Part shown: piece by piece, positions 10,318-59,286 of the stretch | Layout: each line of letters starts with the position of its first letter | Position numbering within the stretch: position 1 is the stretch's first letter | Assembly: GCA_964543035.1 (NCBI GenBank) | Contig: CAZIVL010000001.1 | Coordinates: forward strand, 122,000-185,999 | Source: an uncultured Gammaproteobacteria bacterium | Lineage (GTDB): Bacteria > Patescibacteriota > Microgenomatia > CAZETR01 > Amesbacteraceae | Length of the DNA: 64,000 nt | Direction: 5' to 3' | Made by a program: the position numbers and the translations under genes | Notes under the pieces: model-generated | The model's database searches: none | What the model was told of the DNA's origin: nothing | What the model saw: only the letters and a program-made list of their open reading frames with translations

Positions 10318-10321
10318 TTCT

Positions 10322-10930: not shown

Positions 10931-10966
10931 ATTTGATCAATTTTACTCCCAATGTATACTTTATGA

Positions 10967-11254: not shown

Positions 11255-11257
11255 CAG

Positions 11258-11800
11258 CTACTCCTCTGGTGGCTCGCCGCCGACCATTTCTCCCGGTTTC
11301 AGCCATTGGATATAGTCACACCCAGTCGCCTTCTTGGCCGCACTATCCCAGCCCGAAGTACTACACTTGATCATTCGTTTTCCCGCCGCAGTCGTGTACA
11401 GGACCAGTTTGTTTTGACACTTGGGGCAGCTCTCAGACAGTTCTTCAGTGGTTCCATTTATCCACTCCACATAGTCACACCCAGTCGCCTTCTTGGCCGC
11501 ACTGTCCCATCCCCCCGTGCTACATTTTTTCATTTTTTTACCAAACCTGGTGACGGCCAACATCAGAGGATTTCCGCACTTGGGACATTTTTCATCCAGT
11601 TCTTGAGGTTCGACAGCCAGCCACTTTACATAGTCACAGCCAGTTGGTTTATTTTTTGGATCCCAGGGACCAGCTGTACTACAGCGCTGCAACTTGCGAC
11701 CAGAGTTTGTTTCAGTAACAGGAGCCAGTGGCGCCCCACACTTCGGACACATTTCATCTGCCATAGAAATAAATGATAACATAATATTATGCTTTCGCAT
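11258..11800 (-). CDS. YrdD-like protein made of three topoisomerase-IA-type C4 zinc-ribbon repeats
   Basis: Three repeats of CPKC(G/Q)..L...-N20-C(S/D). Confidence 0.6.
   Translation of the reverse strand: MRKHNIMLSFISMADEMCPKCGAPLAPVTETNSGRKLQRCSTAGPWDPKNKPTGCDYVKWLAVEPQELDEKCPKCGNPLMLAVTRFGKKMKKCSTGGWDSAAKKATGCDYVEWINGTTEELSESCPKCQNKLVLYTTAAGKRMIKCSTSGWDSAAKKATGCDYIQWLKPGEMVGGEPPEE
11312..11788. repeat. Three tandem 159-bp coding repeats (units start about 11312, 11471, 11630)
   Basis: The first roughly 40 nt of units 1 and 2 are nearly identical (atagtcacacccagtcgccttcttggccgcact); they encode the three zinc-ribbon modules of the YrdD-like gene. Confidence 0.6.
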
Positions 11801-12730
11801 CTTGCCCTATATGCAGCAGCTTTTGTGGGGATCTGGATTGGATCTGGTTTGACCATCAAAGCAGTAGAGCATCTGTCTCGCAAGCTAAAGCTATCCTCAT
11901 TTGCCGTTTCTTTCTTACTGTTGGGCTTCTTCACCTCAGCCAGCGAGATCTCAGTGGGTATCAATTCTGTTTTGACAAATAACCCCGAGATCTATGTAGG
12001 TAATCTCATCGGTGCTTCTCTGGTTCTCTTTGTTCTCGTGGTGCCTCTTTTGGCCATCGTGACTGGCAAGGTGGTAATAAACAAGCAGTTCCAGGGCTCT
12101 ACACTTTTTTACTCTCTAATAGTCATTGCAGCCCCGGTCGTTCTAGCAGCCGACGGCCGAATAGGAAAAATCGATAGCATTATTTGTATCGTTTTATACG
12201 TGATCCTGGCCGTCGCCATCGAGTCCAAGAGGGGACTACTGGCAGCAGCCAGTCAAAAAAATCCGATATCGACCATCCACATGGGCAAGATTGCGCTTGC
12301 CATGCTCGGAGGTCTCGCTTTGGTATTTTTCAGCAGCAAGATAGTTGTGAGCCAGACTCTGTATCTATCCGAGACCTTGGGTATATCCTCATTTCTTTTG
12401 AGTCTTTTACTTATCTCTATTGGTACAAATGTCCCCGAGCTTTCATTTGTCTTCAGATCCCTGTTTTCCAAGTCCAATCAAGTCGCCTTTGGTGACTATG
12501 TAGGCTCAGCCGCCTTCAATACTTTTTTGATAGGCATCCTTACTCTGTATTATGGCCAGACCGTGCAGCTGACAAACAGTTACCTTGTCAGTTTGTCTTT
12601 TTTGGTTGTCTCTCTCGTAGTCTTCTATATCTACGCCAGGACCAAAGGCTCACTTTCTAGGTTGGAAGGTTTTTGTCTCTTAGTCTTCTATCTTCTGTTT
12701 CTGGGCACCGAGATTCTTATTCATTCGTAG
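11789..12730 (+). CDS. CaCA-family (YrbG-like) sodium/calcium exchanger membrane protein
   Basis: Two alpha-repeat regions including GTNVPELS; about 10 TM helices. Confidence 0.65.
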   Translation: MLSHLALYAAAFVGIWIGSGLTIKAVEHLSRKLKLSSFAVSFLLLGFFTSASEISVGINSVLTNNPEIYVGNLIGASLVLFVLVVPLLAIVTGKVVINKQFQGSTLFYSLIVIAAPVVLAADGRIGKIDSIICIVLYVILAVAIESKRGLLAAASQKNPISTIHMGKIALAMLGGLALVFFSSKIVVSQTLYLSETLGISSFLLSLLLISIGTNVPELSFVFRSLFSKSNQVAFGDYVGSAAFNTFLIGILTLYYGQTVQLTNSYLVSLSFLVVSLVVFYIYARTKGSLSRLEGFCLLVFYLLFLGTEILIHS

Positions 12731-37736: not shown

Positions 37737-38744
37737 TTAAGATATATTAATCTTTGGCAAAGATACCGCTACGAAAGTGCCTTTACCCACTTTACTCGTA
37801 ATATCAATAGTACCCTGATGGGCTTTTACGACTGCTTGAACTATAGCCAGTCCTAAACCAGAACCAAAAATTTTATCAGTTCTGGAGCCTCGGTAGAAAC
37901 GCTCAAATACGTATGGAAGATCTTCCTTGTGTATTCCCAAGCCATTATCCTTAACCTGAAATACTGCTAGGTTATTTTTAGTACGAAGGTCAATAGTAAT
38001 ACTGGCGTTATTTGGAGAAAACTTCACTGCATTATCGACAATATTCAAAAACGCTCGAAACAATTTATCTTTACGACCGGAAATTATCACATCCTTATCG
38101 ATTGAACCATTAATAATCAGATTTTTATCGAATGCTAATTTAGTGGCAACTTCTTTTACTTCTGTCACCACCTCAGATATATTAATCGTGGTCGCTCCTT
38201 TTTGGGCATCCTCAGTGTTGGACCAAGCTAAATCCAGAATGTTTTTTATAGTAGTTGAGATCCTGTTGGAGTCAGACAGGGCTTCCTCAATTGCAATTTT
38301 ATAGTCTTCTTTTGATCGATCCTTTGAGAGTGTTAACTCAAGCGATGCCCGCTGAACGGATAACGGAGTTTTAAGTTCATGAGCCACATCTCCAATGAAT
38401 TGACCTTCTCGCCTAAATGCTTCATCAAGGCGACTCAGTAGTTGATTAAATGCATGTGCCATCTCACCAATTTCGTCGTCTCGATTTATCTCGGTAATCT
38501 TCTCATTAAGGTTTTTGCTGGTTATTGTTTGTATTTTTGACGACAAATAGGTTAACCCGTCAGTCAATTTTCGAATAATAAAAAGACCCTGCAATGCCAG
38601 AACAAATACCAACAAAAAGTAGACAATATCCCCATTGGGTAGTCGTAATATATGAATACCTATATAAAAAAATGCAGTAATCGTTAATAATGAAGTTGCA
38701 TACCAAAGAATAAGTCTATTTCGAAAAGTGTTAAATCGTTTCAT
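37737..38744 (-). CDS. Sensor histidine kinase (second CusS-like paralog, short sensor loop)
   Basis: HisKA AHELKTP; HATPase GSGLGLAIV. Confidence 0.8.
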   Translation of the reverse strand: MKRFNTFRNRLILWYATSLLTITAFFYIGIHILRLPNGDIVYFLLVFVLALQGLFIIRKLTDGLTYLSSKIQTITSKNLNEKITEINRDDEIGEMAHAFNQLLSRLDEAFRREGQFIGDVAHELKTPLSVQRASLELTLSKDRSKEDYKIAIEEALSDSNRISTTIKNILDLAWSNTEDAQKGATTINISEVVTEVKEVATKLAFDKNLIINGSIDKDVIISGRKDKLFRAFLNIVDNAVKFSPNNASITIDLRTKNNLAVFQVKDNGLGIHKEDLPYVFERFYRGSRTDKIFGSGLGLAIVQAVVKAHQGTIDITSKVGKGTFVAVSLPKINIS

Positions 38745-38750: not shown

Positions 38751-39431
38751 TTAGGCAGACTCGCTAATCTTGTAACCTACTCCATGAACAGTATGGATGA
38801 GAGAACTACTTTTTTTCTTATCAATCTTTCGCCTAAGAGCTGAAACAAATACATCTACCACATTGCTCATACTGTCGAAGTTGTAGTCCCAGACCTGTTC
38901 GGTAATCATGGTTCTGGTAATCACCTCGTCTTTATGCCGAAGAAGTAACTCCAAAACTGAAAATTCCTTTTGGGTTAAATTGATTGGTTTTCCACCCTTA
39001 GAGACCTTATGTTTCAAAGGGTCTACTTCAAGATCGGCAACCTTTAGTACGATTGAAGTGTCTGACTTGCTGCGCCTGATTAATGCGTGCACTCGAGAAT
39101 GTAACTCAATATAAGCAAACGGTTTTGCAAGGTAGTCATCAGCTCCGCTATCCAGACCAGCCACTCTATCTTCTACCGTAGTTTTTGCTGTAAGCATTAG
39201 AACTGGAGTTTTTATGCGTTTTGCTCGAAGCTCTTTACAAATAGTTAATCCATCAATTTTGGGAAGCATGATATCAAGGATAATAAGATCGTAGTTCTCC
39301 GACTCTGCAAGGTATTGTCCCTCCTCCCCGTCATAAGCAGCATCTACTGCAAACCCATCCTCAGCAAACCCCTTTTTAATTACATTGGAAATTCGTCGAT
39401 CATCCTCAATGGCCAGTATTCTCATGACCAC
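38751..39431 (-). CDS. OmpR-family response regulator (second paralog)
   Basis: Collinear with 29556-30233 (same LDIMLPK.DG and LMLTAK motifs). Confidence 0.85.
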   Translation of the reverse strand: MVMRILAIEDDRRISNVIKKGFAEDGFAVDAAYDGEEGQYLAESENYDLIILDIMLPKIDGLTICKELRAKRIKTPVLMLTAKTTVEDRVAGLDSGADDYLAKPFAYIELHSRVHALIRRSKSDTSIVLKVADLEVDPLKHKVSKGGKPINLTQKEFSVLELLLRHKDEVITRTMITEQVWDYNFDSMSNVVDVFVSALRRKIDKKKSSSLIHTVHGVGYKISESA

Positions 39432-39566: not shown

Positions 39567-41783
39567 TTATCTTTCTGAACCTTTAAAATCAGATAGCGTG
39601 GTAACCCTCTTGAGAGTTCTGGTATAAATCACAACTTTGGCGTCCTTCATGAGTTTTGTAGATAATTGTTCTGAAAGCTGGGTGTGTTTTTCTTGCGTTA
39701 GACGTTCTCGAATAAACTCTTTAGCATCTTCAAACGCAAGTTGTTTTGGCTCAGAACGGCCAAGCACTTCGACGATATAAATATACCCATTGGCTTCAAA
39801 TGGTGGCCCAATTTGTCCTTTGGGAATAACCTGCACTTGTTCGTGATATTGATGTTTTACGATTTCACCGACCACATTCATTTCTTCTTCAACCCACTCA
39901 GATACTTCACCACCTTTATCCTTTGTTTGCTCATCTTCAGAATACTGCTTAGCTACACTGGCAAAATCTTCACCTTTCTTAAGAGGTCCCGGCACAAGTT
40001 TTTTATACGCCTCATTTGCCTTTTCGAATGCTTTTTTGTGCTCGTCGTCTGTTTGGCTGTCAGAACTCCCAGCCCGAATAACAATTTGGCGAACTTTAGA
40101 TTTGGCCGGCATAACCAGCTCGGCTTTATTCCGATTGTAATAATCTTGCAAGTCCTTATCTTCGATTTTAATCTTTTCATCAACTTCTTCCTGTTCCAGC
40201 ATTTGGGCCAAGACTTTCAGTCGCATTTCATCTTTCCGCTCTTTCGTCTCGGTTTGCGACACCTGACTTAAACTGTCTTCATAGAGAAGCAGGCGCTCAA
40301 TGATTTTTTCAACCAGCGCCTGCTTACCCTCGGTGCCAGAATACGAAGTCAAGAAAGAAAGTGGCAGTTCCTGATATTCCTCCCAGAATTCACCTAGGGT
40401 AAACCTTTTACCGTTGACGGTAAAAAGCGTCCTGTCGGCATTGTCGGTATAGTATTTTTTTTCTGTTTCCGCCAACACTGCCGTTTGGACACTGGATTTG
40501 ACTTCTTCAAAACTCTGCTGCCTATCCGGTTGCTTGGAGATTAGCTTAACAATAGAGAAAGCATCTTTGTCAGTTATGACATCGCTTATCTGTTCTGGAT
40601 CTAACCGAAAAATGGCTTCTTCATAAGCAACATCCTGCTCTCCCTTGGTTTTGGTTTCCCCGGTCTGGGGAAGCGTTGAACTGCTTATTTCCTCATAGAC
40701 CTGACCAAAATCACTTCCCGAGCGGATTTTAGAAAGAGCTTGCTCGGCTTTTTCTTTAGCCTTTTTTTCGTCTGTGCCTTTTGGAATCCGGATCTCATGA
40801 ACCACTACCTGAGCTTTGACGAAATATTTATCCTTGTTGGCGTCATAGTAATTTCGTAGTTCCCAATCGGCTGGCACAGGAACAGCAAGTGTAGCTACGT
40901 CTTTGGTAATTGAAGCTCTGTTTTTGAGTCCAGTAATATAATTTTGAACAAACTGGTCTTCCTTCTCACTCTGAAGTTTAGTTTTTATTTCTTCACGGAC
41001 ATCAGTCAGGGTTTTATCGCCAAAATCTTTCTTGTTAGCCTCATAGTATGCACCTATATCGCCTTCGGTCACCCCAAGTTGGCCTTTGTGCATTTGGGCA
41101 TGTAATTCATCAAGATTTATTTCCTCTGTAATATGCTTCATCACGTGGGAAAATTCCTTGTCCTGGTCGGGTTTCCGGTTGGCTTGCCAGCGTTTGACGA
41201 TCTCATCGGTAATCATCTCCTGAACAATGAGTCCGTATCCTTGTGGACTCTTTAATTGTTTTCGATATTCCTCATCCTCAACAAGAGAAGCTAAGTGTTT
41301 CTCAACATCTTCGATGGTTATTCTGCCGCCGTCATAGGCAGCCACGACATTCGGTGCTGGTGGCCAGGGGGCAAAAATGTCCTCTCGGAATCTGAACACA
41401 AGAAATGCTGCGACTACTATTACACCCAAAATAATCTTCTTTTTTCGTGACAAATGAATGGTTGGTAGAGGAAAGCGGGACGGTTTGCTCTTCTCTGGCT
41501 GGTCTTCGCCCTCCATGGCATCAGGTGGCTGTACAGGATGAATTTCTTCTCGGAGAGTAACTGCTTCCGGCGGTTCAGTGACTTCTTTTTCTACAACCTT
41601 TTTCCTCGTTGGTGAAGGCTCCGGCTTTTTGGGAGCGGGTTTTTGTTTTTGGCTACCACCAGAAAAACCCAAAGATTGGCGTATATCGGTAAATATCTGG
41701 CCCCAGCCTTCGCTGGATTTGCCTTTATCGACCGTTTTCTGTTTGTGGTGGGAAGACATTGACTTTTGTTTCATTTCCTTCAA
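39567..41783 (-). CDS. PpiD/SurA-like membrane-anchored periplasmic chaperone with two parvulin-type PPIase domains and a K/P-rich disordered N-terminus
   Basis: One TM helix after a roughly 110-aa low-complexity region; two parvulin-like segments (KAQVVVHEIRI...; VRQIVIRAG...GGEVSEWV...NGYIYIVEV). Confidence 0.6.
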   Translation of the reverse strand: MKEMKQKSMSSHHKQKTVDKGKSSEGWGQIFTDIRQSLGFSGGSQKQKPAPKKPEPSPTRKKVVEKEVTEPPEAVTLREEIHPVQPPDAMEGEDQPEKSKPSRFPLPTIHLSRKKKIILGVIVVAAFLVFRFREDIFAPWPPAPNVVAAYDGGRITIEDVEKHLASLVEDEEYRKQLKSPQGYGLIVQEMITDEIVKRWQANRKPDQDKEFSHVMKHITEEINLDELHAQMHKGQLGVTEGDIGAYYEANKKDFGDKTLTDVREEIKTKLQSEKEDQFVQNYITGLKNRASITKDVATLAVPVPADWELRNYYDANKDKYFVKAQVVVHEIRIPKGTDEKKAKEKAEQALSKIRSGSDFGQVYEEISSSTLPQTGETKTKGEQDVAYEEAIFRLDPEQISDVITDKDAFSIVKLISKQPDRQQSFEEVKSSVQTAVLAETEKKYYTDNADRTLFTVNGKRFTLGEFWEEYQELPLSFLTSYSGTEGKQALVEKIIERLLLYEDSLSQVSQTETKERKDEMRLKVLAQMLEQEEVDEKIKIEDKDLQDYYNRNKAELVMPAKSKVRQIVIRAGSSDSQTDDEHKKAFEKANEAYKKLVPGPLKKGEDFASVAKQYSEDEQTKDKGGEVSEWVEEEMNVVGEIVKHQYHEQVQVIPKGQIGPPFEANGYIYIVEVLGRSEPKQLAFEDAKEFIRERLTQEKHTQLSEQLSTKLMKDAKVVIYTRTLKRVTTLSDFKGSER

Positions 41784-42858
41784 GTAACTTTAGATTAACC
41801 CGTTCTCCTGGTTTGACGATATAAGCAATGACTCTGGGAAATATCTTTTCCATGCGCTCCAAATACAATCGGAAGCGAGTTACTTGTTCTCCATAAATAC
41901 TACTGTTTGTTTTATATTCCGCTAAAATGCCAGTAAAAGCTACCGCCGACCCGCTGGCTTCGTTAATCTGCGCCTGAGCCGAGCTGCTAGCCTCAGTAAT
42001 CAGTTTTTGTGCTTGTCCACGCGCTTCGGGAATGATGCTATTTTTGTACCCTTCTGCTTCATTCATTGTTTTACTCTTGTCTTCTCTGGCACTTGAGACA
42101 TCACGAAAGGCATCAGCCACTTCATCTGGTGGATAGGCTTTTTGAAAGTTGACACTAACAACGGCCAGCCCGCTGTTATATGAGTCCAACAATGTTTGTG
42201 TTTCTTTCTGTAGGCGATTTAGGACGCTCTGGCGCTCTGAAGTAAGAATATTATCAACTGCTGTTTCGGCACTGATTTTGGTTACCGCAGCCCGTACCGC
42301 GTCGCGGACTGTCTGATAGGCAGCATAATCGATGTTGAATAAGTAATCAGCGGGGTCTCGTACTTGGTATTGGACGATGACTTCGTAGTCAATAATATTG
42401 GTATCTCCACTTAGAACTTGGAGTTTCCCTGGTTGTTCCACATGTTTCGGGTGTTCTGGTTCGGGACTCGAAAGACCGACACTCTCCCGCCTCACTTCAG
42501 AAACATTAACAATTGTTTCGCGATCAACGGGCCAAGGTAGGCGATAATGAAGTCCTTCTGATACTTTTGGGCTCACGACTTTCCCAAAACGAGTAACTAC
42601 TGCCGCTTCTCCTGATTTGACGATGTAAATACCCGATAGAAAATAAATGACTATTACGATTTTGACAATATTTCCTGAAACATAACGGGCATTGACGTGT
42701 TTAAAAGCAAGGCGAATATCCGTCATAGAAGATGATCCGTCAGCCGAACGGATTTTTTTCGTAGCAATTTGAACTAATCGTATAAATAAGCCAACGACTA
42801 CAAGTACACGTTTAGTAACCTGCGCCAATAATTTTTTTATGTTGTTTGTTTGTTCCAT
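41725..42858 (-). CDS. HflK-like SPFH/band-7 protein
   Basis: N-terminal TM helix, GEAAVVTRFGKV and a long C-terminal coiled coil. Confidence 0.75.
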   Translation of the reverse strand: MEQTNNIKKLLAQVTKRVLVVVGLFIRLVQIATKKIRSADGSSSMTDIRLAFKHVNARYVSGNIVKIVIVIYFLSGIYIVKSGEAAVVTRFGKVVSPKVSEGLHYRLPWPVDRETIVNVSEVRRESVGLSSPEPEHPKHVEQPGKLQVLSGDTNIIDYEVIVQYQVRDPADYLFNIDYAAYQTVRDAVRAAVTKISAETAVDNILTSERQSVLNRLQKETQTLLDSYNSGLAVVSVNFQKAYPPDEVADAFRDVSSAREDKSKTMNEAEGYKNSIIPEARGQAQKLITEASSSAQAQINEASGSAVAFTGILAEYKTNSSIYGEQVTRFRLYLERMEKIFPRVIAYIVKPGERVNLKLLEGNETKVNVFPPQTENGR

Positions 42859-42926
42859 ATAAAGATACCGACACTTATTTTGCTTATCTTTACTCCTATG
42901 TTCAGTGCTTTAACTAAATCCGCTGT

Positions 42927-43856
42927 TTATGGATTGAGATACTTCAGCAATTCTGAATCAGAGGGAAGAATAAGCGTTGTGCCATTATTTATGACCTTGT
43001 CGTACGACTCAAGCGTACGCAAAAACTGGTAGAATGCTGGGTCACGACCAAAGGACTGAGCATAAATGCGGATTGCCTGTGCTTCTCCCTCTCCTTTAAT
43101 TCGGTTTGATTCTTCCTGAGCTTTAGATAAAAGGGTGGTTTTTTCAGCATCCGCCTCAGCTCGAATCTTGGTCGCTTCCTCAGTTCCTTCGGACCTGAGT
43201 TGTCTGGCGATTTGCTGGCGTTCGGCTCGCATCCGCTGGAATACACTTTGCCTGTTTGCTTCAGGAAAGTTAAGCTGCTTGAGTCTGACATCGGCCACCT
43301 TAAAACCGTAAGCTCTGGTGCGTTCATCAGTCTGTTTGGTAAGTCCGGAGAGCATCTCGTCAAGTTTCATCTGACTTTGATCAGTGGTGACTAAGTTGGT
43401 CAGTTCATACTGTGATAGTGCCACACCAAGCTCAGAAGTAAGAATATCTGAGAGTCGAGACGATGCTCCTTGGGCGTCTCTGACACTTTTGAAAAATTGC
43501 ACCGGATCGTCTATCTGCCAAGTAGCATACGCTTCAACTAAGACATTTTTCTTGTCTTTGGTCAGAAATTCTGTTTGAGCGACATTCTGAACTTGTACTC
43601 GTTTATCCAGACGAATCAGATTTTGTAATGGATCGGGAAGTTTGGCATACAACCCAGGTTCTTTGATCGCTCGAATTGGACTGCCAAACTGAGAAACAAT
43701 AGCGTATTGGGTGCTGTCGACTTGAAATGCAACCAGTGTGGATATGATAAGCAAAAGTCCAACTATAATGCCTACCATAAATTTAGGCTGGCGCAGTGTG
43801 GACCAGTTAACTCTGCTTTTTGCTTGATCTATAAATTGAGATTGCCGTGTTTTCAT
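42927..43856 (-). CDS. HflC-like SPFH/band-7 protein
   Basis: N-terminal TM helix, QYAIVSQFGSP and a C-terminal coiled coil. Confidence 0.75.
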   Translation of the reverse strand: MKTRQSQFIDQAKSRVNWSTLRQPKFMVGIIVGLLLIISTLVAFQVDSTQYAIVSQFGSPIRAIKEPGLYAKLPDPLQNLIRLDKRVQVQNVAQTEFLTKDKKNVLVEAYATWQIDDPVQFFKSVRDAQGASSRLSDILTSELGVALSQYELTNLVTTDQSQMKLDEMLSGLTKQTDERTRAYGFKVADVRLKQLNFPEANRQSVFQRMRAERQQIARQLRSEGTEEATKIRAEADAEKTTLLSKAQEESNRIKGEGEAQAIRIYAQSFGRDPAFYQFLRTLESYDKVINNGTTLILPSDSELLKYLNP

Positions 43857-43870
43857 AAATTCGCCTCCTT

Positions 43871-45397
43871 TTAGGGTTGAGCAGTTTTTCCATTAGTAAT
43901 CCACAAATCAGTGGAGTTTGTTTCCACTCGTGGGTCGAGAATGTATTTTCTAATGTTTGGTAATACTTTCTCCAATGATTCTAGATACAGTCGTGTCCGG
44001 GTAACTTGCGGGGCAGTTTGGTAAGCTGCAAGTTTTTTACTGAACCGCTCGGCTTCGCCGGTTGCCAAAGCAATCTTACTTGTTTTCTCTGCAGTTGCTG
44101 TGGTTACTTGTTTGCTCGCTTCCCCTCGAGCCACTGCTACAGTTTCATTTTTATATGCCAAAGCTTCATTCATATACGTATTTTTGTCTTCTCGAGCGCT
44201 TGATACATCCAAAAATGCGTCAGCTACTTCGCTGGGTGGAGTGACGGAAAGCAGCTGGATATTGGCGACTTTTATGCCAGTGTTATGTTCCTCAAGTAAG
44301 CTTTGCGTTTTCATTGAAGTCTCAGCAAGAATTGCACTTCTACTTGCGGTCAGAAGATCGTCAACTCCTTTTTGCGCCACAACTGCTCTAAAAGCAGTTT
44401 CTGTTTCTTTGGCAAGCAAGTTTTCTGGACTTTGAGTACTGAAAAGATAATCCGCAGGATTGGTGATCGTATATTGGACGGTCAATTTTGTATTAATGAG
44501 ATTGGTATCTCCGGTGAGCACTAATGTGGCTTCGGTTTCTACTTGACGAACTTGGTCTGTATTCACTCTTGATATGGAGTCAATAAGGGGTACACGTATA
44601 TGAAGTCCAGAACCAAAGGTGCCAGCTACTTTTCCAAATCGCTGTATCACCGCTTGCTCACCGGCTTGTACGGTATAAACGCCTGATAGCAAAATGAATA
44701 CTGCTGCGATCCCACCTAGATAACCCAGTATTCGTTTATTGTGAAAAAGGGCCAGATGATGATGTCCTTCAAGGTGCAAGGGCAGCGATTGATTTGTTTT
44801 GAGGGCATGAATCGCCGATTCAGCAATTTCCCAACCAGAGGTGACGATGAGCATGATCACGAAAATCGCTGCTAGCTTATCAATGGCTGGAAATCCCACG
44901 GCCGCCGCAATTAATCCGACGACGACAAGGACTGAAGCGTAGAGATCCATACGTGAGTGGTAGCCACTGGCAATAAGACTGAGAGAATTAGTAGCACGAC
45001 CGACAAATTCTTTATACCGGGCGGTAAAGTAGGTTATAACAATAGTCAGAAATGCACCAATGGTAACTGGCCAGATATTTCGAAGATCTGGTGCTTCGGC
45101 AGCACCTGTCACTTCTCTAAAAATCTCAAGAGCTGAGAAAAACATCAGCCCTGAAACGATTAATGCCACGACATTTTCAATCGTTCCGGCTTGTAGTCGC
45201 CGTTTGGCTTCCCAAGCTGCTGATAAAAGCCCTATAAGTACAAAGACCGAAACAAACACATCACCGACTGAGTGCCAGGCACTGGCTTTGAGGGACAAAC
45301 TGCCCGATGAGGAAGAAAGAAAAAATTTAAGAAGAACAAGTACGATATTAGCGACAATGGTAACAACAATAGTTTTTTCTTTTCTATTCATAGCCAA
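43871..45397 (-). CDS. Fusion of a cation-diffusion-facilitator (CDF) transmembrane domain with an HflK-like SPFH domain
   Basis: CDF TM2 and TM5 HxxxD motifs (AWHSVGDV, GYHSRMDL), His-rich linker HLEGHHH, an extra TM helix, then GEQAVIQRFGKV and an SPFH core with coiled coil. Confidence 0.7.
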   Translation of the reverse strand: MAMNRKEKTIVVTIVANIVLVLLKFFLSSSSGSLSLKASAWHSVGDVFVSVFVLIGLLSAAWEAKRRLQAGTIENVVALIVSGLMFFSALEIFREVTGAAEAPDLRNIWPVTIGAFLTIVITYFTARYKEFVGRATNSLSLIASGYHSRMDLYASVLVVVGLIAAAVGFPAIDKLAAIFVIMLIVTSGWEIAESAIHALKTNQSLPLHLEGHHHLALFHNKRILGYLGGIAAVFILLSGVYTVQAGEQAVIQRFGKVAGTFGSGLHIRVPLIDSISRVNTDQVRQVETEATLVLTGDTNLINTKLTVQYTITNPADYLFSTQSPENLLAKETETAFRAVVAQKGVDDLLTASRSAILAETSMKTQSLLEEHNTGIKVANIQLLSVTPPSEVADAFLDVSSAREDKNTYMNEALAYKNETVAVARGEASKQVTTATAEKTSKIALATGEAERFSKKLAAYQTAPQVTRTRLYLESLEKVLPNIRKYILDPRVETNSTDLWITNGKTAQP

Positions 45398-45477
45398 TTA
45401 GTTTAGTTCTTTGGGCAATATTAACAATAATGATATTACTACAAATTGTAGTAAATTGTTGAGATAAATGCAACAGT

Positions 45478-46263
45478 TTATCTTATTAACTTATCTTCAA
45501 AGTCATGAAGTAAAAAAAGGCTGACATCATCTCGAGAAAATTCGCCCTCCTGAAATGGTTGTTCGATTTTTGTTATCAATCTAACAATGTATAAAAACAT
45601 GTATGAGATAAATCCGAACAGTACGAATGATTCCGGAGATCCTTCAGATTTAATAAACAACAAAAGGAATATTATTAAACATACAATTGACTGCCCAAGA
45701 ATAAATGCTGATGGTATAAATTGTGTTCGTTGAATGTGTAAAACACGTAGCACCGATCGTCTGATATTTCCCTGCTCAGTCTTTAATCTGACAAGATAGT
45801 TTGGAGGCATACCAAGCTGTTCCATTTCATAAAAATGTTGAGATAATTCGTCAATGGATTGTAAACACGGCTTCAAATTTATATGGTTTTGCTCATGGCT
45901 AATACCAAGGAAAAAGTTACTGATCACTTTTTTGAGAGTTTCTTTTAACCGCAAAATCTTAAACGTAGTTTTACCTTTTTTAAACAACTGCCCTTCTTCA
46001 AAAATATTTTCCAAAGATGCTCGAAGCTCTGAAGGTATCTTTTCTGCTTCTTTGTAATCAGTGATTAATCCTGACAAAAGAAAACCACATATAAACGTAG
46101 CTCCAGCTATAGCGCTTCCTGTAAGGGTATTAATTTCCAAAAACTCCCATTTAAAAAAATGTACTAAATACTTTATCAGTATCAACAGGATTACCCAGCC
46201 GATAGTTGTAATAGCAATATTAAAATGCTTGATACGATGGTGATTTAAAATAGTTTTAATCAT
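45478..46263 (-). CDS. Hypothetical membrane protein, possibly bestrophin/UPF0187 family
   Basis: N-terminal TM pairs and a C-terminal E.PF..G..S.DD(V/L) pattern reminiscent of bestrophin homologs; weak. Confidence 0.35.
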   Translation of the reverse strand: MIKTILNHHRIKHFNIAITTIGWVILLILIKYLVHFFKWEFLEINTLTGSAIAGATFICGFLLSGLITDYKEAEKIPSELRASLENIFEEGQLFKKGKTTFKILRLKETLKKVISNFFLGISHEQNHINLKPCLQSIDELSQHFYEMEQLGMPPNYLVRLKTEQGNIRRSVLRVLHIQRTQFIPSAFILGQSIVCLIIFLLLFIKSEGSPESFVLFGFISYMFLYIVRLITKIEQPFQEGEFSRDDVSLFLLHDFEDKLIR

Positions 46264-46267: not shown

Positions 46268-47200
46268 TTACCAAAATTTAAAGCCTTTAAGGATTCTCTC
46301 GTAGACCCGATATGGTTTAGGGCCGACTAGACCCTTACCGTTGATAAAAACCAGAGGGGTGCCATAAATATTTGTTTTTTCAAGTTGTATCCGTCTTTCA
46401 ATAACCGCGCTTTGCGTCTCAGAAGATTGACTGCAGGTATTTATAGCTGCAACATCATACCCAACGTCTTCGAGAATCTCATCGACAAATTCCTTCTTAG
46501 CTATGTCTTCCTTGCTATTTTCGAACAATTTATCATTGAATTGCCAGTATCTTTCCTTATCCTGCTGATAGGCACAATAACCGATTGGCAAGAGATACAA
46601 TGTTTCTTCCTTTACTGGGTAGTGGGCAAAAGTGTAGTTAACTTGGTTTTCGGAAATAAACTGCTTTATCAATGGATACGCTTTTCTAGTGTAATCGCAA
46701 CTGTAGCAACCAATGAGTACTACAGAGTCTTTTGAACCTTTATCAATATTTGGAAAAAGACTCAAATCAACACCTTTAAGGGTAACTTTGCTTTCATCTC
46801 CTACTCCATCCGAACAACTACCGCCAGTTTGAGAAACTTTATTATTTTCACCTTTAGGGTCAAGGGCGCAAAATCCTGATTTATTTAGGCCATTACAACT
46901 TCCATACATGTAGTAGTTGTATAAACCTTTCCCTGTCCAGAAAATGCTGGCCACTGTGGTTAGGAATAATATCCAAGACAGAAGTTCAAAGTGTCTGTTG
47001 ACGACTCTGGCTGCCACCTGAGAACGGGAAAGGAGCGTTCCCACCATCCGAGCTTTCATCTTTTCTTTAAACCCCGTAGTACACGGACGTAGTGTTATTC
47101 GGCGAAAAACACAATCAAATGCCTCCTTGGCCAACTGCCTGTGTGAGGCACTAAATATGCTGATAATTGATAAGGCGATAAACGCTAAAATGCAAAACAT
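46268..47200 (-). CDS. Membrane-anchored DsbA-like thioredoxin-fold protein (CxxC = CYSC)
   Basis: Two N-terminal TM helices, Cys-rich juxtamembrane segment, thioredoxin domain with CYSC. Confidence 0.6.
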   Translation of the reverse strand: MFCILAFIALSIISIFSASHRQLAKEAFDCVFRRITLRPCTTGFKEKMKARMVGTLLSRSQVAARVVNRHFELLSWILFLTTVASIFWTGKGLYNYYMYGSCNGLNKSGFCALDPKGENNKVSQTGGSCSDGVGDESKVTLKGVDLSLFPNIDKGSKDSVVLIGCYSCDYTRKAYPLIKQFISENQVNYTFAHYPVKEETLYLLPIGYCAYQQDKERYWQFNDKLFENSKEDIAKKEFVDEILEDVGYDVAAINTCSQSSETQSAVIERRIQLEKTNIYGTPLVFINGKGLVGPKPYRVYERILKGFKFW

Positions 47201-47202: not shown

Positions 47203-48399
47203 TTAGAGAACGCTTAATACTTTATGTAATTCTTTAACAAAAACTTCTGCTTCATCAAGAGTGTTATAAAAATAGACCGATGCCCGCACCGATCCGGGGA
47301 TTTCCCTGTCCGCAAACCAGGAATGTACGCAGTGTTGACCGGAGCGAACCATAATCTGTGAGGAGGCGTCAAGCATGAGAGCGATCTGATGATGGTCTTT
47401 GTCCGGAATATAAAAAGACACAATTCCGCCTCTTTCTTTGAAATCAGCCGGACCGATAATAAACAGATTGGGAATTCTCCGAAGTTCCCCAGTTATATAT
47501 TCATTTAACACTTGCTCCTTCTTTTGTATTTCGGCAAATCCAATCTTTTCCAGATATGAAGCCGCCTCACCTAATCCGATAATTCCTGCATAATCCTGCA
47601 GTCCTGCCTCAAACTTTTCAGGCGAAGGGAGAAACTCGCACGATTCATAAGTGGATGAGGAAACGGTATCACCACCGACTAAAAATGGCGACAATTTCTC
47701 CAAGAGCCCATATTTTCCGTAAAGGACTCCTGTACCAGACGGACCAAGCATCTTGTGGCCCGAGAATGCCATAAAATCAACATCCAGCTTTTGGACGTCT
47801 ATTGCTTGATGCGGAACAGCCTGAGCACCATCAAGAAGCACTAAAGCACCATGTTGGTGTGCCAAATGGATAACTTCGGCAGCTGGAATGCTTACACCGT
47901 CCAGATTTGAGGTCATGCCAAGAGCAACCAGTTTTACTCCCTTCTCAAGAGCTTTCTTATACGCTTCCATATCAAACGTGTTATCTTCGAGTGAACGGAC
48001 AATCCGGTGAGCAGTCCCGATTTTGTTGCGCAGAATCTGCCAGGGAATAAGATTGGAGTTGTGTTCCTTATCAGAAGTTAAAACAATATCGCCTTCTTTG
48101 AAGGCTAAGCTATTAGCTACCAGATTAATACTCTCAGTAGTATTACGAGTAAATACTATTTCCTCTTTTCGTTTTGCGTGTAGGAATTTAGCTATCTGTG
48201 TGCGTGCTTCATCACATTTTTGAGTGACCTTTGCTGCCAGATGATGGTTACTCCTGCCCCCGCACGCAGAATAATCTCGGTAATATTCAGTTATCGCATC
48301 AATGACCGATTGGGGACGCAAACTCTGACAGGCATTGTCAAAATAAATTTCTTCTTTTGAAATTACCGGAAAATCCTGTCTGATTTTTGTAATATTCAT
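47203..48399 (-). CDS. Cysteine desulfurase (class V aminotransferase, SufS/CsdA-like)
   Basis: PLP lysine in FSGHKMLGPSG; catalytic Cys in RSGQHCVH. Confidence 0.8.
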   Translation of the reverse strand: MNITKIRQDFPVISKEEIYFDNACQSLRPQSVIDAITEYYRDYSACGGRSNHHLAAKVTQKCDEARTQIAKFLHAKRKEEIVFTRNTTESINLVANSLAFKEGDIVLTSDKEHNSNLIPWQILRNKIGTAHRIVRSLEDNTFDMEAYKKALEKGVKLVALGMTSNLDGVSIPAAEVIHLAHQHGALVLLDGAQAVPHQAIDVQKLDVDFMAFSGHKMLGPSGTGVLYGKYGLLEKLSPFLVGGDTVSSSTYESCEFLPSPEKFEAGLQDYAGIIGLGEAASYLEKIGFAEIQKKEQVLNEYITGELRRIPNLFIIGPADFKERGGIVSFYIPDKDHHQIALMLDASSQIMVRSGQHCVHSWFADREIPGSVRASVYFYNTLDEAEVFVKELHKVLSVL

Positions 48400-55801: not shown

Positions 55802-56581
55802 TTATGATTGCAATGCCTTATCAATCATCGGCTTGACTTGTTCAAAAGGTAAGGCGCCTGGAACAAGCTGGGTATCACCTTTTGCGTTGATAATAATAGT
55901 TCCTGGTGTACCGGTTACACCCTCAGCTGTTCCCTTGGCCATCTGATCCTTGACTTTTTGAGCCATTTCTCCAGAGTCTAAACACTGTTTGAACGATGAT
56001 TCATTAAGTCCCAACTCTTTGGCCAACGGAGTTAATTTGTCCAAGGCAAATCCAGTCCCATTAGAGGTGGTGCGTTCAAAGATAGCATCTGTATATTTCC
56101 AGAATGCTTCATTTCCACCAATTTTTCCAGCACACTCTGATGCTTCAGCTTCTTTTTGTGCATTGGCATGGAAAGAAAGCGGATAATGGCGGTATACCCA
56201 TTTCACCTTATCCCCGTATTCTTTCATAACCTGTTGCATCGTCGGGTGAAAACTTTTGCAGAATGGACATTCTAAATCTGAATACTCTACCATTACAACT
56301 TTGGCATTTTTGTTACCTTTGTACCAATCCTTATCGGTTACTTCCGGTTTTTTGGTTGCCACCTGGGGTTGAGGTGCGCCTGCAGCAGCCGGAGCACCCG
56401 CAGCTTGATTAGTACCTGTCGTGGTTGTTCCAGCCACCGCAGCGCCCTTTTCGAGATACTTGACTTTGGTGTAGAGAGATCCAATAGCAAACGATGCACC
56501 AATAAGAACTAAAACGAGAATAATGCTGAAATTACCTGAAAGCATATTTTTAAGAGGAGATAAATTTTTTTCTTCAGTCAT
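55802..56581 (-). CDS. Membrane-anchored DsbA/BdbD-like thiol-disulfide oxidoreductase (CPFC)
   Basis: TM anchor, Gly/Ala/Pro-rich linker, LECPFCKSFHP. Confidence 0.75.
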   Translation of the reverse strand: MTEEKNLSPLKNMLSGNFSIILVLVLIGASFAIGSLYTKVKYLEKGAAVAGTTTTGTNQAAGAPAAAGAPQPQVATKKPEVTDKDWYKGNKNAKVVMVEYSDLECPFCKSFHPTMQQVMKEYGDKVKWVYRHYPLSFHANAQKEAEASECAGKIGGNEAFWKYTDAIFERTTSNGTGFALDKLTPLAKELGLNESSFKQCLDSGEMAQKVKDQMAKGTAEGVTGTPGTIIINAKGDTQLVPGALPFEQVKPMIDKALQS

Positions 56582-56636
56582 AATGATTATTATAAACTAA
56601 TATTACTACAAAGTGTAGTAACTCTATAAACCAATG

Positions 56637-57710
56637 TCAATAGGAAACTGACGTAAATTGTACTGGTGAATAAAGCCTTGAAGACTGAGGCGCCGAAATT
56701 GGAGGGGTCTGCATACAAGCATTAGTACATGCTCCACTTGGGTCAACACAAGCCATAACAGCATCTTCTCCCATGTCATGAAACTCGATAGCCTGTACTG
56801 GAGCTATTGTCAAACCACCCAAAATTGCCACGGACAGTATACTTATAACTACATTTCTTATTGAGAGGCACGGTGAAAATATTGTCTTTTTAGTAATGGT
56901 CCGGATACGAGTTTCTAATGTCTGAGCATCCATAAAACTTGGTACTATGGCTAAAGCCGGATAGAGATCATAATGCAGAAGTTTTGAAAGAACTGATCGG
57001 ACATGCTCCTTTCCATCATCCATAGCTGTAATTGCCGCATTATCAGCTTTAATTTCTCTTTGTGTTCTATACATTGCTATCAAATCCGTAAGAAGTGGGA
57101 AAAAAGGAAATAATGATTGAGTGAATACTGCAAATAGCATGATTAACGTATCATGATGCTCTAAATGATATTTTTCGTGTCGCAATACTGCTTCTATTTC
57201 ATCCGAAGTTGTAATTGCGAGCATTTGAGTAGAGATGTAGATTTTTGGCCTGGTAAATCCGAAACAAAAAGCGCCCACCTGTTCATCTTGTATAACCCGA
57301 ATTTTATTAACAAGGTGTAATTTTTTCGCAAGCGGCAGAATACTATCTTTCTCTACGATCTTTTCTTCAAGCGACTTATGTTGCTGAAAAACTCTCAGTA
57401 CTGTTAAAAAAACTTTTACTATTATATAGAGAGTCAAAGCAGCAAAACCCCACATCATAAAAAACTTAATATTCAAGCGTATTGGTTGCATCAAGACAGA
57501 CTGAAGCATTTCTCGGCAGTAATAGACAGTATTATGCAGAAGAAATGGAATGTATTTAGCACAAGCATTATATAGGAGTGTTCCTAACACAACAAAAATC
57601 CCTAAAAAAAACCACGCGTAGCTATTTATCTTTGTCATATATTTGTTCTTGTAAAAGTTTAAGAAAATACTCTTTTTTCTCTTTTGGCAAACGTTCGATG
57701 GATTGAGCAA
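56637..57710 (-). CDS. BlaR1/MecR1-type M56 zinc metallopeptidase with a Cys-rich C-terminal tail instead of a beta-lactam sensor (start probably the internal Met near 57638)
   Basis: Four TM helices, HEKYH(LEHHD) zincin motif, and a C-terminal TM helix plus ACVDPSGACTNACMQ. Confidence 0.65.
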   Translation of the reverse strand: MLNPSNVCQKRKKSIFLNFYKNKYMTKINSYAWFFLGIFVVLGTLLYNACAKYIPFLLHNTVYYCREMLQSVLMQPIRLNIKFFMMWGFAALTLYIIVKVFLTVLRVFQQHKSLEEKIVEKDSILPLAKKLHLVNKIRVIQDEQVGAFCFGFTRPKIYISTQMLAITTSDEIEAVLRHEKYHLEHHDTLIMLFAVFTQSLFPFFPLLTDLIAMYRTQREIKADNAAITAMDDGKEHVRSVLSKLLHYDLYPALAIVPSFMDAQTLETRIRTITKKTIFSPCLSIRNVVISILSVAILGGLTIAPVQAIEFHDMGEDAVMACVDPSGACTNACMQTPPISAPQSSRLYSPVQFTSVSY

Positions 57711-58044
57711 AAGAAGCTAGGGCAGCATCGCCAAATGTTCCGAAGAATTTATCTAAAAGATTCCTCGCCATTTTTTGGCTAAATTCCTCTTTAGTTTGTT
57801 TTGGGGCAAAGACGACGGTAAAAGCCGAGGCATCTTTTTCAACTAACCCTTTTTCATGCAACCTTTCTAAAATCGTGGCAATCGTCGTATACGCAAGAGT
57901 CTTTGTTTTATTCGTCTCATCGGCCACTTCCCTAATGGTGCATTCACCCAATGCCCAGACAACATTCATCGTTTCCTGCTCTAGGTCGCTCAAGTTTTTC
58001 TGTGCCATACTACGTATTGTAGAAGGTTGAATGAAAAAAGACAA
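57622..58044 (-). CDS. BlaI/MecI/CopY-family winged-helix repressor
   Basis: TIATILERLHEKGLV penicillinase-repressor signature; precedes the M56 peptidase. Confidence 0.7.
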   Translation of the reverse strand: MSFFIQPSTIRSMAQKNLSDLEQETMNVVWALGECTIREVADETNKTKTLAYTTIATILERLHEKGLVEKDASAFTVVFAPKQTKEEFSQKMARNLLDKFFGTFGDAALASFAQSIERLPKEKKEYFLKLLQEQIYDKDK

Positions 58045-58060: not shown

Positions 58061-58970
58061 CCGTAGAAATCCGGCATTGGGCATACAATTATGGAAATGC
58101 TCAATGCTACAAAGATTGTTCTTGCCTGGGAGTTGTATGAGTCTGGTATTTGTAAGGTGGATGTAGCCAAAAGGTTGGAGGTAAATCGAGATACGGTTCG
58201 AGTTTGGATTCAGGGAGTCCAAAAACATAGCCTCAACACATTTCTTGATTTGTATGCCTCTGCAAAAAAGGGTTCAAGACCCAAACGCCAGATTGATCCA
58301 ATTCTCAAACGGTGGGTTTGGGATATTCGTGAACGGGAGTTGGACTGCTGTGGTCAAAAGATAAACTACTTTCTGGAAAAAGAACGTGGGGTAAGTGTGT
58401 CCATTCCCAAGATTTACGAGATACTCGCTGAAAAGTATCAAATAAAAAGTAAATGGAAAAAGAATCAGGCTCTAGGACCGGTACCAGAGGCCCAAAAGGC
58501 ACGTGAGGTCATCCAGATGGACTCCATAGACTTTGGCGGGATATTTGCATTTACTGCGGTGGATATATTTTCTCGCGAAGCTGATGTCTTGTTACGACCA
58601 TCGTTAACTAGTCATGACGGACTAGTTTTCTTGGAAACGTGTATGCCTCGGAGATTTGATGGCCACAGCAAGTTAATCCAATCTGATGGCGGACCCGAAT
58701 TCAAAGATGAATTCAAAGAAAACGTTGGACAATATACCGATAGATACCGAATTTCTGCTGCATACAAAAAGAACGAGCAGGCATATATTGAGTCGTTTAA
58801 TAGAACAGTTAGAAAAGAATGTTTAGGTTGGAGTAAATACCACCCTGATCAAATCACCCAGCTTAACTACCTGGTAAACACTTTCCTTGAGCGGTATCAT
58901 TACCACAGGCCACATTTAGGTCTAGGATTAAGACCACCGCTTACCAAGTCCTAGTGCCGGATATTTACGG
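58061..58970 (+). mobile_element. IS481-like insertion sequence (single transposase, imperfect roughly 17-bp terminal inverted repeats)
   Basis: Left end CCGTAGAAATCCGGCAT versus reverse complement of right end CCGTAAATATCCGGCAC (14/17 match), bracketing the transposase ORF. Confidence 0.55.
58091..58954 (+). CDS. DDE transposase (rve integrase core, IS481-like) with N-terminal HTH
   Basis: DDE residues in QMDSID, QSDGGPEF and IESFNRT contexts. Confidence 0.8.
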   Translation: MEMLNATKIVLAWELYESGICKVDVAKRLEVNRDTVRVWIQGVQKHSLNTFLDLYASAKKGSRPKRQIDPILKRWVWDIRERELDCCGQKINYFLEKERGVSVSIPKIYEILAEKYQIKSKWKKNQALGPVPEAQKAREVIQMDSIDFGGIFAFTAVDIFSREADVLLRPSLTSHDGLVFLETCMPRRFDGHSKLIQSDGGPEFKDEFKENVGQYTDRYRISAAYKKNEQAYIESFNRTVRKECLGWSKYHPDQITQLNYLVNTFLERYHYHRPHLGLGLRPPLTKS

Positions 58971-58985: not shown

Positions 58986-59222
58986 CTAAAATTCTACAGC
59001 GTATCTCGGACTAAAACTGAAATTGGTAAGGCTAGCTGATTCGATTTTGTCACAAATAAATTGTTTTATAGACTGTCTTCCAGATTTACCGCCACTGGTA
59101 TCATATCCCCAGAAGTACTCCATACCTACACCATTTTTTCTCACATAATATTTCATGGAGTAAGGTTCAACCAATCGATCATAACCATCGTATGACAATT
59201 CCAGCACCTTTTGTGACTCCAT
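58986..59222 (-). CDS. Doubtful small ORF (possible gene fragment); 5' end overlaps the tRNA-Glu
   Basis: ORF only; overlaps the tRNA 3' end by 9 nt. Confidence 0.2.
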   Translation of the reverse strand: MESQKVLELSYDGYDRLVEPYSMKYYVRKNGVGMEYFWGYDTSGGKSGRQSIKQFICDKIESASLTNFSFSPRYAVEF

Positions 59223-59286
59223 CCGGATTCGAACCGGAGTTCTCAGAATGAGAATCTGATGTCCTGGGCCTCTAGACGATGGAGCC
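59214..59286 (-). tRNA. tRNA-Glu (anticodon CUC)
   Basis: Manual fold: acceptor GGCTCCA/TGGAGTC, D-loop TCTAGAGGCCCAGGAC (a hallmark of tRNA-Glu), anticodon stem TCAGA/TCTGA with loop TTCTCAT, T-arm TCCGG-TTCGAAT-CCGGA. CCA is not encoded. The 3' end faces the island. Confidence 0.75.

Follow-up and report, generated by a model that had tools for sequence, protein, structure and literature searches.

A cation diffusion facilitator fused to an HflK-like SPFH protein in a conserved four-gene cassette of a bacterial metal and redox island

Four consecutive minus-strand open reading frames (ORFs) between positions 39567 and 45397 form a gene cassette in the stretch of DNA analyzed here, which comprises 64,000 nucleotides (nt) of contig CAZIVL010000001.1 (assembly GCA_964543035.1, positions 122,000 to 185,999), is deposited under the name of an uncultured Gammaproteobacteria bacterium, is placed by GTDB in the Patescibacteriota (Amesbacteraceae), and is referred to below as the window. 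In the ORF listing of the 36-49 kb region, the four genes encode a cation diffusion facilitator (CDF)-HflK fusion (43871-45397), an HflC-like SPFH protein (42927-43856), a second HflK paralog without a CDF domain, termed HflK2 (41725-42858), and a membrane-anchored tandem SurA/PrsA-like chaperone (39567-41759). A first-pass annotation of the window had described the first of these proteins as a complete CDF transmembrane (TM) domain joined to an HflK-like band-7 domain. The profile matches, structure model, and database searches reported here agree with this description, and we consider it nearly certain that the fusion architecture and its conservation are real.

The fusion gene occupies a 508-codon ORF opening at a TTG codon at 45397. 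Since the family consensus opens with MNRKE and an independent gene call yields 506 amino acids (aa), translation probably starts at ATG 45391, two codons inside this ORF. Both Pfam and both NCBIfam models for the two proposed halves matched. Pfam Cation_efflux (PF01545) covers residues 11-199 (E 1.2e-25, 90.9 bits versus a cutoff of 26.6) and nearly the full profile (positions 2-197 of 198), and the CDF model TIGR01297 was passed with 90.9 bits (cutoff 82.35). In the C-terminal half, Pfam Band_7 covers residues 242-417 (E 2.8e-25), and the HflK equivalog model TIGR01933 was passed over residues 240-489 with 237.4 bits (cutoff 159.4). An AlphaFold2 (AF2) model, calculated with 87 family sequences as input, reached a mean predicted local distance difference test score (pLDDT) of 86.2, with the CDF helices mostly at 85-96, and contains seven TM helices in total, namely a six-helix CDF fold followed by a seventh TM helix, the SPFH domain, and a coiled coil. 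Taken from the profile matches and the model, the layout consists of the CDF TM domain (residues 5-201; 44795-45385), a cytoplasmic His/acidic linker of low pLDDT (62-66; residues 202-220; 44738-44794), and the HflK part (43931-44737) with TM7 at residues 221-238, the SPFH domain at 240-386, and a long coiled-coil helix at 389-478.

A Foldseek search with this model retrieved the HflK chain 7vhq_E at E 2e-21, and the CDF part superposes on the TM domain of YiiP with a root mean square deviation of 2.6-2.9 Å over ~195 alignment columns. In sequence, residues 14-201 align to residues 19-209 of Shewanella YiiP, with an identity to YiiP of ~20-22%, and residues 232-488 align to residues 89-344 of Escherichia coli HflK (E 1e-51, ~35% identity). 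Residues 1-78 of E. coli HflK are cytoplasmic and unresolved, and residues 79-355 were modeled (PMC12048511); with the alignment running from residue 89, the join point of the fusion coincides with the start of the resolved E. coli protein. Clusters of Lys and Arg occur at the N terminus (NRKEK), in the TM2-3 turn (AKRR), in the TM4-5 turn (RYKEFVGR), and after TM6 (K...NKR), and a reading of the sequence finds the remaining loops almost without charge. Because the number of TM helices is odd (seven) and the N terminus and even-numbered loops are rich in Lys and Arg, we place the SPFH domain outside; the predicted topology, with the N terminus inside, seven TM helices, and an external SPFH domain, fits that of E. 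coli HflK. The model helices, with ends as given by DSSP, run beyond the membrane, and a strict positive-inside tally on such ends is uninformative.

The first-pass annotation had itself cautioned that the assembly might have joined two separate genes into this ORF. Nothing was found in support of such an artifact of assembly or annotation, neither a stop codon or frameshift near 44700 nor a failure of the CDF match was seen, and we regard it as extremely improbable. The Logan assembly of run SRR16481186 spans the fusion with 0 mismatches over 22,193 bases (window positions 29567-51759) and calls it as a single uninterrupted 506-aa gene; as this run and the window may share a sample of origin, the comparison checks the assembler rather than the sample. 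Among 5.8 billion proteins searched, at least 120 protein clusters from unrelated samples and phyla matched, with 42-91% identity and lengths of 500-555 aa (one of 585 aa), and all of them contain both Pfam domains. The fusion is also present in the isolate Rhizobium sp. AN80A, and in Aquibium oceanicum B7 it lies on a conjugative plasmid with a closed sequence. When the CDF half alone was used as query, an exhaustive HMMER scan yielded 484 representatives at E <= 1e-10, and among the 150 best CDF-half matches the SPFH half was also present in 70 of 148 new proteins. In the annotated records that we saw (PGAP, IMG), the sole label of the fusion is "FtsH protease activity modulator HflK".

Both HxxxD metal-site motifs noticed at first pass are present in the CDF half. 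They are H42-S-V-G-D46 in TM2 and H147-S-R-M-D151 in TM5, together forming transport site A, and in 119 family members their residues are conserved at 99% (H42), 100% (D46), 100% (H147), and 94% (D151). The absence of the cytoplasmic CDF dimerization domain was likewise confirmed, as Pfam found no ZT_dimer (PF16916) in the window fusion or in five divergent fusions, whereas the nearest non-fusion CDF relatives do carry it. These relatives (P0153, P0184, and P0195) are ~400-aa proteins combining Cation_efflux, ZT_dimer, and a Nitro_FeMo-Co domain (NifB/NifX-like), a little-discussed CDF architecture. The His-rich loop that had been ascribed to the CDF part proved to be misplaced: the stretch LHLEGHHHLALFH (residues 208-219) lies after TM6, inside the linker to the HflK TM helix, and not in the TM4-5 loop, and its histidines are only semi-conserved (H212 55%, H214 69%, and H219 33% of the 119 proteins). 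In the predicted layout, the linker is at the spot where the CDF C-terminal domain (CTD) would normally start. Family identity amounts to 58% in the CDF half, 57% in the HflK half, and 23% in the linker. Relative to the WWE3 ortholog, nonsynonymous divergence (pN) is 0.049 for the CDF half and 0.052 for the HflK half, with synonymous sites near saturation, and the linker, with a raised nonsynonymous rate (dN), is the sole freely evolving part of the protein. Since the two halves are equally constrained, the whole CDF domain looks like a working transporter rather than a decayed membrane anchor.

The HD-HD quartet corresponds to the ZnT-type Zn site, as in ZnT-1 and ZnT-8; CDFs without a CTD exist, and metal selectivity is not fixed by site composition alone (PMC8341793). 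All substrate-specific NCBIfam CDF models (MamB, MamM, Cdf31, MntE, and FieF) scored far under their cutoffs, and as far as the sequence allows a prediction, the substrate is most likely of the Zn2+/Cd2+/Co2+ type. Membership in the magnetosome proteins was considered and rejected, given that MamB, MamM, and MamV were the best specific models yet remained far below cutoff and that the sole Magnetococcus locus matched the CDF half only, at 31% identity. The fusion shares the full Cation_efflux TM domain and the HD-HD quartet with the CDF antiporters (YiiP/FieF, CzcD/ZitB, and ZnT), but it lacks their ZT_dimer domain and TM4-5 His-rich loop, and its C terminus runs via a seventh TM helix into a predicted extracytoplasmic SPFH domain. 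A CDF TM domain without a cytoplasmic domain is also the hallmark of the CTD-lacking CDFs. Among these, Maricaulis maris MmCDF3 is reportedly, in 2012 work by Russell and Soulimane, a stand-alone protein of the ~200-aa class, said to have metal-chelating N-tails, and one CTD-lacking CDF is said in that work to bind Zn and Cd. In contrast to this group, the N-tail of the fusion is the short conserved MNRKEK, and its C terminus is fused to HflK.

The HflC-like partner (309 aa; TIGR01932 208.5 bits, cutoff 134.4) has an AGGAGG ribosome-binding site 7 nt upstream and is separated from the fusion stop codon by a 14-nt gap; its orthologs at other loci are 63-91% identical. HflK2 (377 aa; TIGR01933 231.5 bits) is 53-61% identical to orthologs in other phyla and 34-42% identical to the HflK half of the fusion. 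Being closer to its cross-phylum orthologs than to its neighbor, it points to an old duplication of which both copies have been retained. Thus, the co-directional HflC-like and HflK-like paralogs seen downstream at first pass both pass the curated hflC and hflK models. In E. coli, 24 subunits of HflK and HflC assemble into a cage that covers the inner membrane on its outer side and holds FtsH hexamers (PMC12048511), and open and closed states of HflK/C control substrate access (PMC12048511, PMC13220708). Similarly to the E. coli HflK/HflC-FtsH complex (7vhp, 7wi3, and 9cz2), the C-terminal 277 residues of the fusion have a TM-SPFH-coiled-coil fold with a predicted outward SPFH domain, and HflC is encoded next door. 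Unlike the E. coli system, the cassette swaps the HflK N-tail (residues 1-78) for a six-helix transporter domain, comprises three SPFH genes instead of two together with a dedicated chaperone gene, and resides in metal islands or on a plasmid, not in a housekeeping locus. SPFH rings organizing a membrane protein are also represented by the trans-acting systems found among the fold matches (stomatin-ASIC/AQP1, QmcA-YbbJ/NfeD, and prohibitin-m-AAA); the client is a separate polypeptide in these systems, whereas here the transporter would be a covalent part of the ring subunit. The FtsH-contact residue is numbered Arg191 in PMC12048511, which does not match R185 and R193 of the deposited chain, and under this mismatched numbering the R193 equivalent is kept in the fusion (R337, family-invariant) and the R185 equivalent in HflK2. 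No ftsH was present among the ORFs scanned in the 64-kb window. A full-length Lon protease gene lies at 18279-20693 on the plus strand, ~2 kb outside the metal island described below.

The fourth gene lies in an ORF (39567-41783) that holds two parvulin domains (306-429 and 553-675). Because a 100% identical database protein has 730 aa, translation probably starts at 41759, which gives this length. The protein comprises a disordered cytoplasmic tail (residues 1-98), a TM helix (105-128), and two modules, each composed of a beta-hairpin, a helical chaperone domain, and a parvulin domain in the AF2 model, which is confident from residue 105 on and has an overall mean pLDDT of 81.6. Its earlier designation as a two-parvulin, PpiD/SurA-like membrane chaperone holds with respect to the anchor, the two parvulin domains, and the likeness to SurA, but not with respect to PpiD, as orthology was rejected by a score of 50.7 bits for PRK10788 (cutoff 493) and by the PpiD-YfgM structure ranking only 19th among the fold matches. 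These matches were led by SurA 1m5y (E 5e-9) and included PEB4 3rfw, PrsA 6vj6, and HP0175; PrsA and HP0175 were also found as sequence matches. As modeled, the protein is a member of the SurA/PrsA-type structural class in the form of a tandem duplication, and it scored under the cutoffs of PrsA and other NCBIfam equivalogs as well. It shares the helical domain and parvulin with SurA, PrsA, PEB4, HP0175, and PpiD, and the N-terminal anchor with PpiD, but it differs from this class by its tandem module duplication, its ~100-residue disordered cytoplasmic tail, and its own family. This family is sharply bounded, with ~75 clusters at E <= 1e-50 followed by generic PpiD-like proteins at ~1e-9, and at least 19 of its members apparently share a contig with a fusion match, judged by equal longest-contig size as a proxy. 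By eye, the dual-histidine motif seems not to be kept intact in either parvulin domain (VHEIRI...FSIVKL and RQIVIR...YIYIVEV).

The gene order fusion-HflC-HflK2-parvulin was found in all full-length loci examined of the type that we call type 1, with the HflC gene next to the fusion in every type-1 locus, and this four-gene synteny is conserved across phyla. The cassette occurs at two WWE3-type loci, one of them in the complete 878-kb genome CP006914.1 (RAAC2_WWE3_1; locus L001) and the other on CAZXMM010000001.1 (L002), as well as in Anderseniella, a Saccharibacteria metagenome-assembled genome (MAG; L004), a Spirochaetae MAG, Rhizobium sp. AN80A, Kouleothrix, Caldilineaceae, the conjugative plasmid of A. 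oceanicum (L013), and four further metagenomic contigs (L014 to L017). Its hosts include two cultured alphaproteobacteria, one of which carries it on a conjugative plasmid, and the cassette appears to be horizontally mobile between distant bacteria. The 950-kb contig CAZXMM010000001.1 is labeled "uncultured Gammaproteobacteria"; its cassette is 88% identical and its flanks are as in the WWE3 genome, and its taxonomic label is probably wrong, the contig belonging more plausibly to WWE3 of the candidate phyla radiation (CPR).

In divergent fusions of 550-620 aa, the linker is longer and Band_7 contains an insertion. The idea that their extra length reflects a retained ZT_dimer was discarded, as Pfam detected none. 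Their partners vary. One is accompanied by two Band_7 genes and no chaperone gene (L012), another has a Band_7 gene nearby on the opposite strand (L019), and a third, a 611-aa protein (L020; locus positions 7001-12120), has a single Band_7 partner and lies directly upstream of a DtxR-family repressor/FeoA fusion and FeoB. At this last locus, stand-alone Nitro_FeMo-Co proteins are encoded upstream, and the context is one of iron, unlike the copper/zinc context of the window subfamily. Given this variation, the ancient core would consist of the fusion and at least one SPFH partner, and the four-gene cassette would represent one well-conserved sub-lineage.

In the window, the cassette is part of a metal and redox island of ~35 kb (22768-57710) in a small genome of the CPR type. 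The island encodes four P1B ATPases, three of the Cu type and one of the Zn/Cd type, and two DsbD_2-cupredoxin fusions, of which one contains an HMA domain. It further holds genes for several DsbA-like proteins, for a cytochrome b5 protein and a class V aminotransferase, and for two two-component systems of the OmpR type. GC content is slightly lower (0.37-0.41) at 28-40 kb of the window. At the edge of the island, beside the BlaI-like gene described below, lie an rve-type transposase/integrase gene (58091-58954, plus strand) and a tRNA-Glu gene (59213-59286, minus strand), which is consistent with horizontal acquisition of the island. Neighbors of the cassette at other loci include P1B ATPases, PCu(A)C, SCO1, DsbA/DsbB, cupredoxin, multicopper oxidase, ZIP, and NicO, and further DUF305/DUF3105, MerR, CsoR, ArsR, YHS, a DegP-like protease, M23 peptidases, and insertion sequence (IS)/integrase genes. 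Directly upstream of the fusion in the window, a 261-aa predicted multi-TM protein without a Pfam or NCBIfam match is encoded (45478-46263, minus strand). A 49%-identical homolog directly follows the parvulin gene in the Saccharibacteria MAG (L004, 13798-14532), and none was detected in the flanks of L001 and L002, the nearest WWE3 relatives (tblastn, E < 1e-5); this protein may be an accessory component. It is preceded by a DsbA-like protein whose membrane N-terminal region is rich in Cys (46268-47200, minus strand), paired with a cysteine-desulfurase-like class V aminotransferase (47203-48399, minus strand). These two genes are also found as a pair upstream of the cassette in L001 and L002 and, more distantly, in L004.

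A promoter-like site precedes the cassette, with a -35 hexamer TTGCAT (45468-45473), a 17-nt spacer, and a -10 hexamer TACAAT (45445-45450). The -10 is overlapped by a 17-bp perfect palindrome, the candidate operator TACTACAATTTGTAGTA (45437-45453), whose 16-nt core CTACAATTTGTAGTAA is invariant in two WWE3-type loci with differing flanks. The motif CTACANNNNGTAG has 3 sites in the window (5 strand matches versus 0.19 expected). A second box, TACTACACTTTGTAGTA (56604-56620, minus strand), overlaps the -10 of a TTGACA-17-TACACT site upstream of dsbA (55802-56581), and a third, weaker box, CTACAATACGTAG (58010-58022, minus strand), lies 5 nt upstream of the ATG of a 127-aa BlaI/MecI/CopY-family repressor (57622-58005, minus strand; PF03965 E 6e-24, 85 bits, cutoff 22.6), a position that suggests autoregulation. 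An M56 (BlaR1-type) membrane metalloprotease encoded at 56637-57710 on the same strand (Peptidase_M56 E 2.7e-17; blaR1_generic 53.6 bits, positions 101-324 of 585) is presumed to be the signal-transducing partner of the repressor. As in BlaI/BlaR1, MecI/MecR1, and CopY systems, a Penicillinase_R repressor is found beside an M56 protease, and TACA...TGTA-type palindromes overlap promoters including the repressor's own; unlike BlaR1 and CopY, the M56 protein has no penicillin-binding sensor domain and the repressor, with a single Cys in the whole protein, has no CxCxxxxCxC motif. Copper sensing of the CopY type was also rejected by TIGR02698 (CopY_TcrY; 44.6 bits versus 121.95). The half-sites of the cop box are 2 nt apart, whereas those of the window boxes are spaced by 3 nt (TACA-ATT-TGTA). 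We infer that the BlaI-like repressor is a candidate regulator of the TACTACAnTTTGTAGTA boxes, the cassette promoter included, which suggests that the cassette is part of a small envelope/metal-stress regulon of the BlaI-like/M56 pair together with a dsbA-led envelope-redox/copper operon. A sigma-70 scan found fewer promoter-like sites than in shuffled sequence, and its hexamer rule missed TTGCAT-17-TACAAT; a terminator scan revealed no convincing terminator inside the cassette.

Most other hosts offer a different candidate for control. In 8 of 12 distinct contexts, a two-component system made up of a HAMP kinase and an OmpR-type regulator is encoded next to the cassette. In the window, an OmpR-family response regulator (38751-39431, minus strand; TIGR01387 266 bits, cutoff 279) and a histidine kinase with two TM helices, a minimal outer loop, and HAMP, HisKA, and HATPase_c domains (37737-38744, minus strand; TIGR01386 210 bits, positions 171-453 of 457) match the CztRS/SilRS/CopRS models best, just under the cutoffs. 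The kinase has no periplasmic sensor domain, and the response regulator seems closest to the heavy-metal regulators CztR/SilR/CopR, its membership in the cassette unit being uncertain. Four cassette-linked kinases are full-length orthologs of one another (43-60% identity), and those of the plasmid and the window match the kinase core only (26-35%). A single orthologous two-component system traveling with the cassette is therefore only partly true, and at least two unrelated kinase lineages beside the cassette argue for repeated recruitment. Direct repeats with ~11-bp spacing occur upstream of the cassette at these loci, namely TTTGTTCAGAA twice in tandem in L016 (~8840-8870), GTTCAG-n5-GTTCAT in L014 (~8890-8912), and TGTTGCAGAA and TGTGTCAGA upstream of the fusion in L013 and L017, respectively. 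They are suggestive of OmpR-family sites, and an operator shared among them would amount to a short motif only.

The first-pass annotation had raised the possibility of a scaffolded or gated efflux and quality-control assembly, which would be compatible with all findings. As a working model, we propose that CDF-HflK, HflC, and HflK2 build, on the external side of the cytoplasmic membrane, a cage of the HflK/C type in which the CDF TM domain would take the place of the disordered cytoplasmic N-tail of ordinary HflK. As the His/acidic tether is only 19 residues long, the exporter would be held at the cage wall, and the cage could supply the oligomerization normally given by the lost CDF C-terminal domain. 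The CDF domain would export a divalent metal of the Zn type against protons, and the tandem SurA/PrsA-like chaperone, probably along with FtsH, would handle exported or membrane proteins damaged by metal stress. Expression would be under stress control, exerted in the window genome, of the WWE3 (CPR) group, by the BlaI-like repressor and the M56 sensor protease via the box over the -10 and in most other hosts by the adjacent OmpR-type two-component system. In our estimate, the chances are even that the locus is such a self-contained, mobile module for metal stress at the envelope, with a Zn-type exporter built into an SPFH cage.

Several observations weigh against this proposal. Most contexts relate to copper, a metal that CDFs do not typically transport; one divergent fusion lies beside FeoAB/DtxR, and the Rhizobium locus has no metal genes nearby. 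The substrate is ambiguous, as the best specific CDF models are the iron-type MamB and MamM (88 and 57 bits, far below cutoffs) and site A residues alone cannot set the substrate (PMC8341793). Divergent fusions without a chaperone gene and with one or two SPFH partners indicate that the four-gene unit is not universal, and ftsH is adjacent at none of the loci examined. Association of the three SPFH proteins with each other, with FtsH, or with the chaperone is something that we infer, and the operator and repressor were paired by motif class and position only.

The lack of ZT_dimer in all CDF-SPFH fusions examined, compared with its retention in the nearest non-fusion CDFs, is equally what one might see if the SPFH ring were purely a scaffold that replaces the CDF C-terminal domain and clusters exporters into a high-capacity efflux patch without FtsH or proteolysis. 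Every fusion locus examined encodes at least one SPFH partner and, as noted, none has an adjacent ftsH, and SPFH proteins are known to bind channels directly, as in the stomatin-aquaporin-1 structure 9zd2 among the fold matches. Against a role restricted to clustering, the SPFH half passes the HflK equivalog model (237 versus 159 bits) and its partner the HflC model, characterized HflK/C works together with FtsH (PMC12048511), and the conserved chaperone gene as well as the DegP-like and M23 neighbors point to proteostasis, so that we consider a pure scaffold unlikely. The chaperone could also be read differently. Its tight co-occurrence with the type-1 fusion, together with the short 19-residue tether keeping the exporter at the cage wall, would suit a metalation chamber, in which CDF domains inside the ring pump metal into the cage space and the double chaperone folds and metalates exported proteins, for supply and not for detoxification. 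ZnT5/6/7 and MamB/MamM are examples of CDFs supplying a lumen, and the neighbors include assembly factors of extracytoplasmic metalloproteins (SCO1, PCu(A)C, cupredoxins, multicopper oxidase, and DsbA/B). However, efflux ATPases of the classical kind and repressors that sense metals, as is typical of detoxification islands, are found in the same neighborhoods, divergent fusions do without the chaperone, and the CDF domains could also lie outside the ring. We regard such a chamber as quite improbable, and so too its most elaborate form, a closed three-paralog cage lined on the inside by CDF domains and enclosing an extracytoplasmic space of ~20 nm for metalloprotein maturation, regulated by envelope stress and encoded on a transferable cassette.

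A sensory role would dispense with net transport altogether. The CDF domain would then serve as a metal-binding switch that opens or closes the HflK/C cage and makes FtsH proteolysis metal dependent. The loss of the regulatory C-terminal domain, the direct coupling of a semi-conserved His/acidic linker to the HflK TM helix, and the known open and closed states of HflK/C (PMC12048511, PMC13220708) are in keeping with this idea. Yet the entire six-helix domain, and not only its four ligands, is as constrained as the SPFH half, the near-full-length Cation_efflux match and the YiiP fold are as expected of a working transporter, and the link to FtsH is itself hypothetical, which leaves a pure sensor a doubtful proposition as well.

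Databases already contain the architecture, and the families of both its parts are known; it represents an uncharacterized system and not a new category. In the literature searched, which covered few subscription journals, no description of a CDF-SPFH fusion or of the cassette was found, nor is such a fusion mentioned in a 2009 census of SPFH proteins from prokaryotes or in a 2026 survey, in agreement with the first-pass annotation, which had not recognized the architecture from characterized systems. That annotation had missed the wide distribution and mobility of the architecture, its placement in metal-resistance islands, and the BlaI-type box in the window genome. Annotation as "HflK" only hides the transporter from surveys of metal resistance.

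SPFH cages (HflK/C, prohibitin, stomatin, and flotillin) are structurally well described, and their effect on clients is still debated. In the fusion, a defined client, a putative metal exporter, is welded to a cage subunit, with partners that have stayed fixed through transfer among CPR bacteria, Chloroflexi, Spirochaetes, and Alphaproteobacteria. This offers a tractable system, in which metal tolerance or transport would provide a measurable output for the effect of an SPFH ring on a membrane protein and for which the cultured hosts Rhizobium sp. AN80A and A. oceanicum B7 are at hand. It also suggests that a CDF can drop its regulatory cytoplasmic domain by borrowing another oligomeric scaffold. 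Finally, that CPR genomes of under 1 Mb keep a ~35-kb metal island with this cassette is informative on the habitat of these bacteria.

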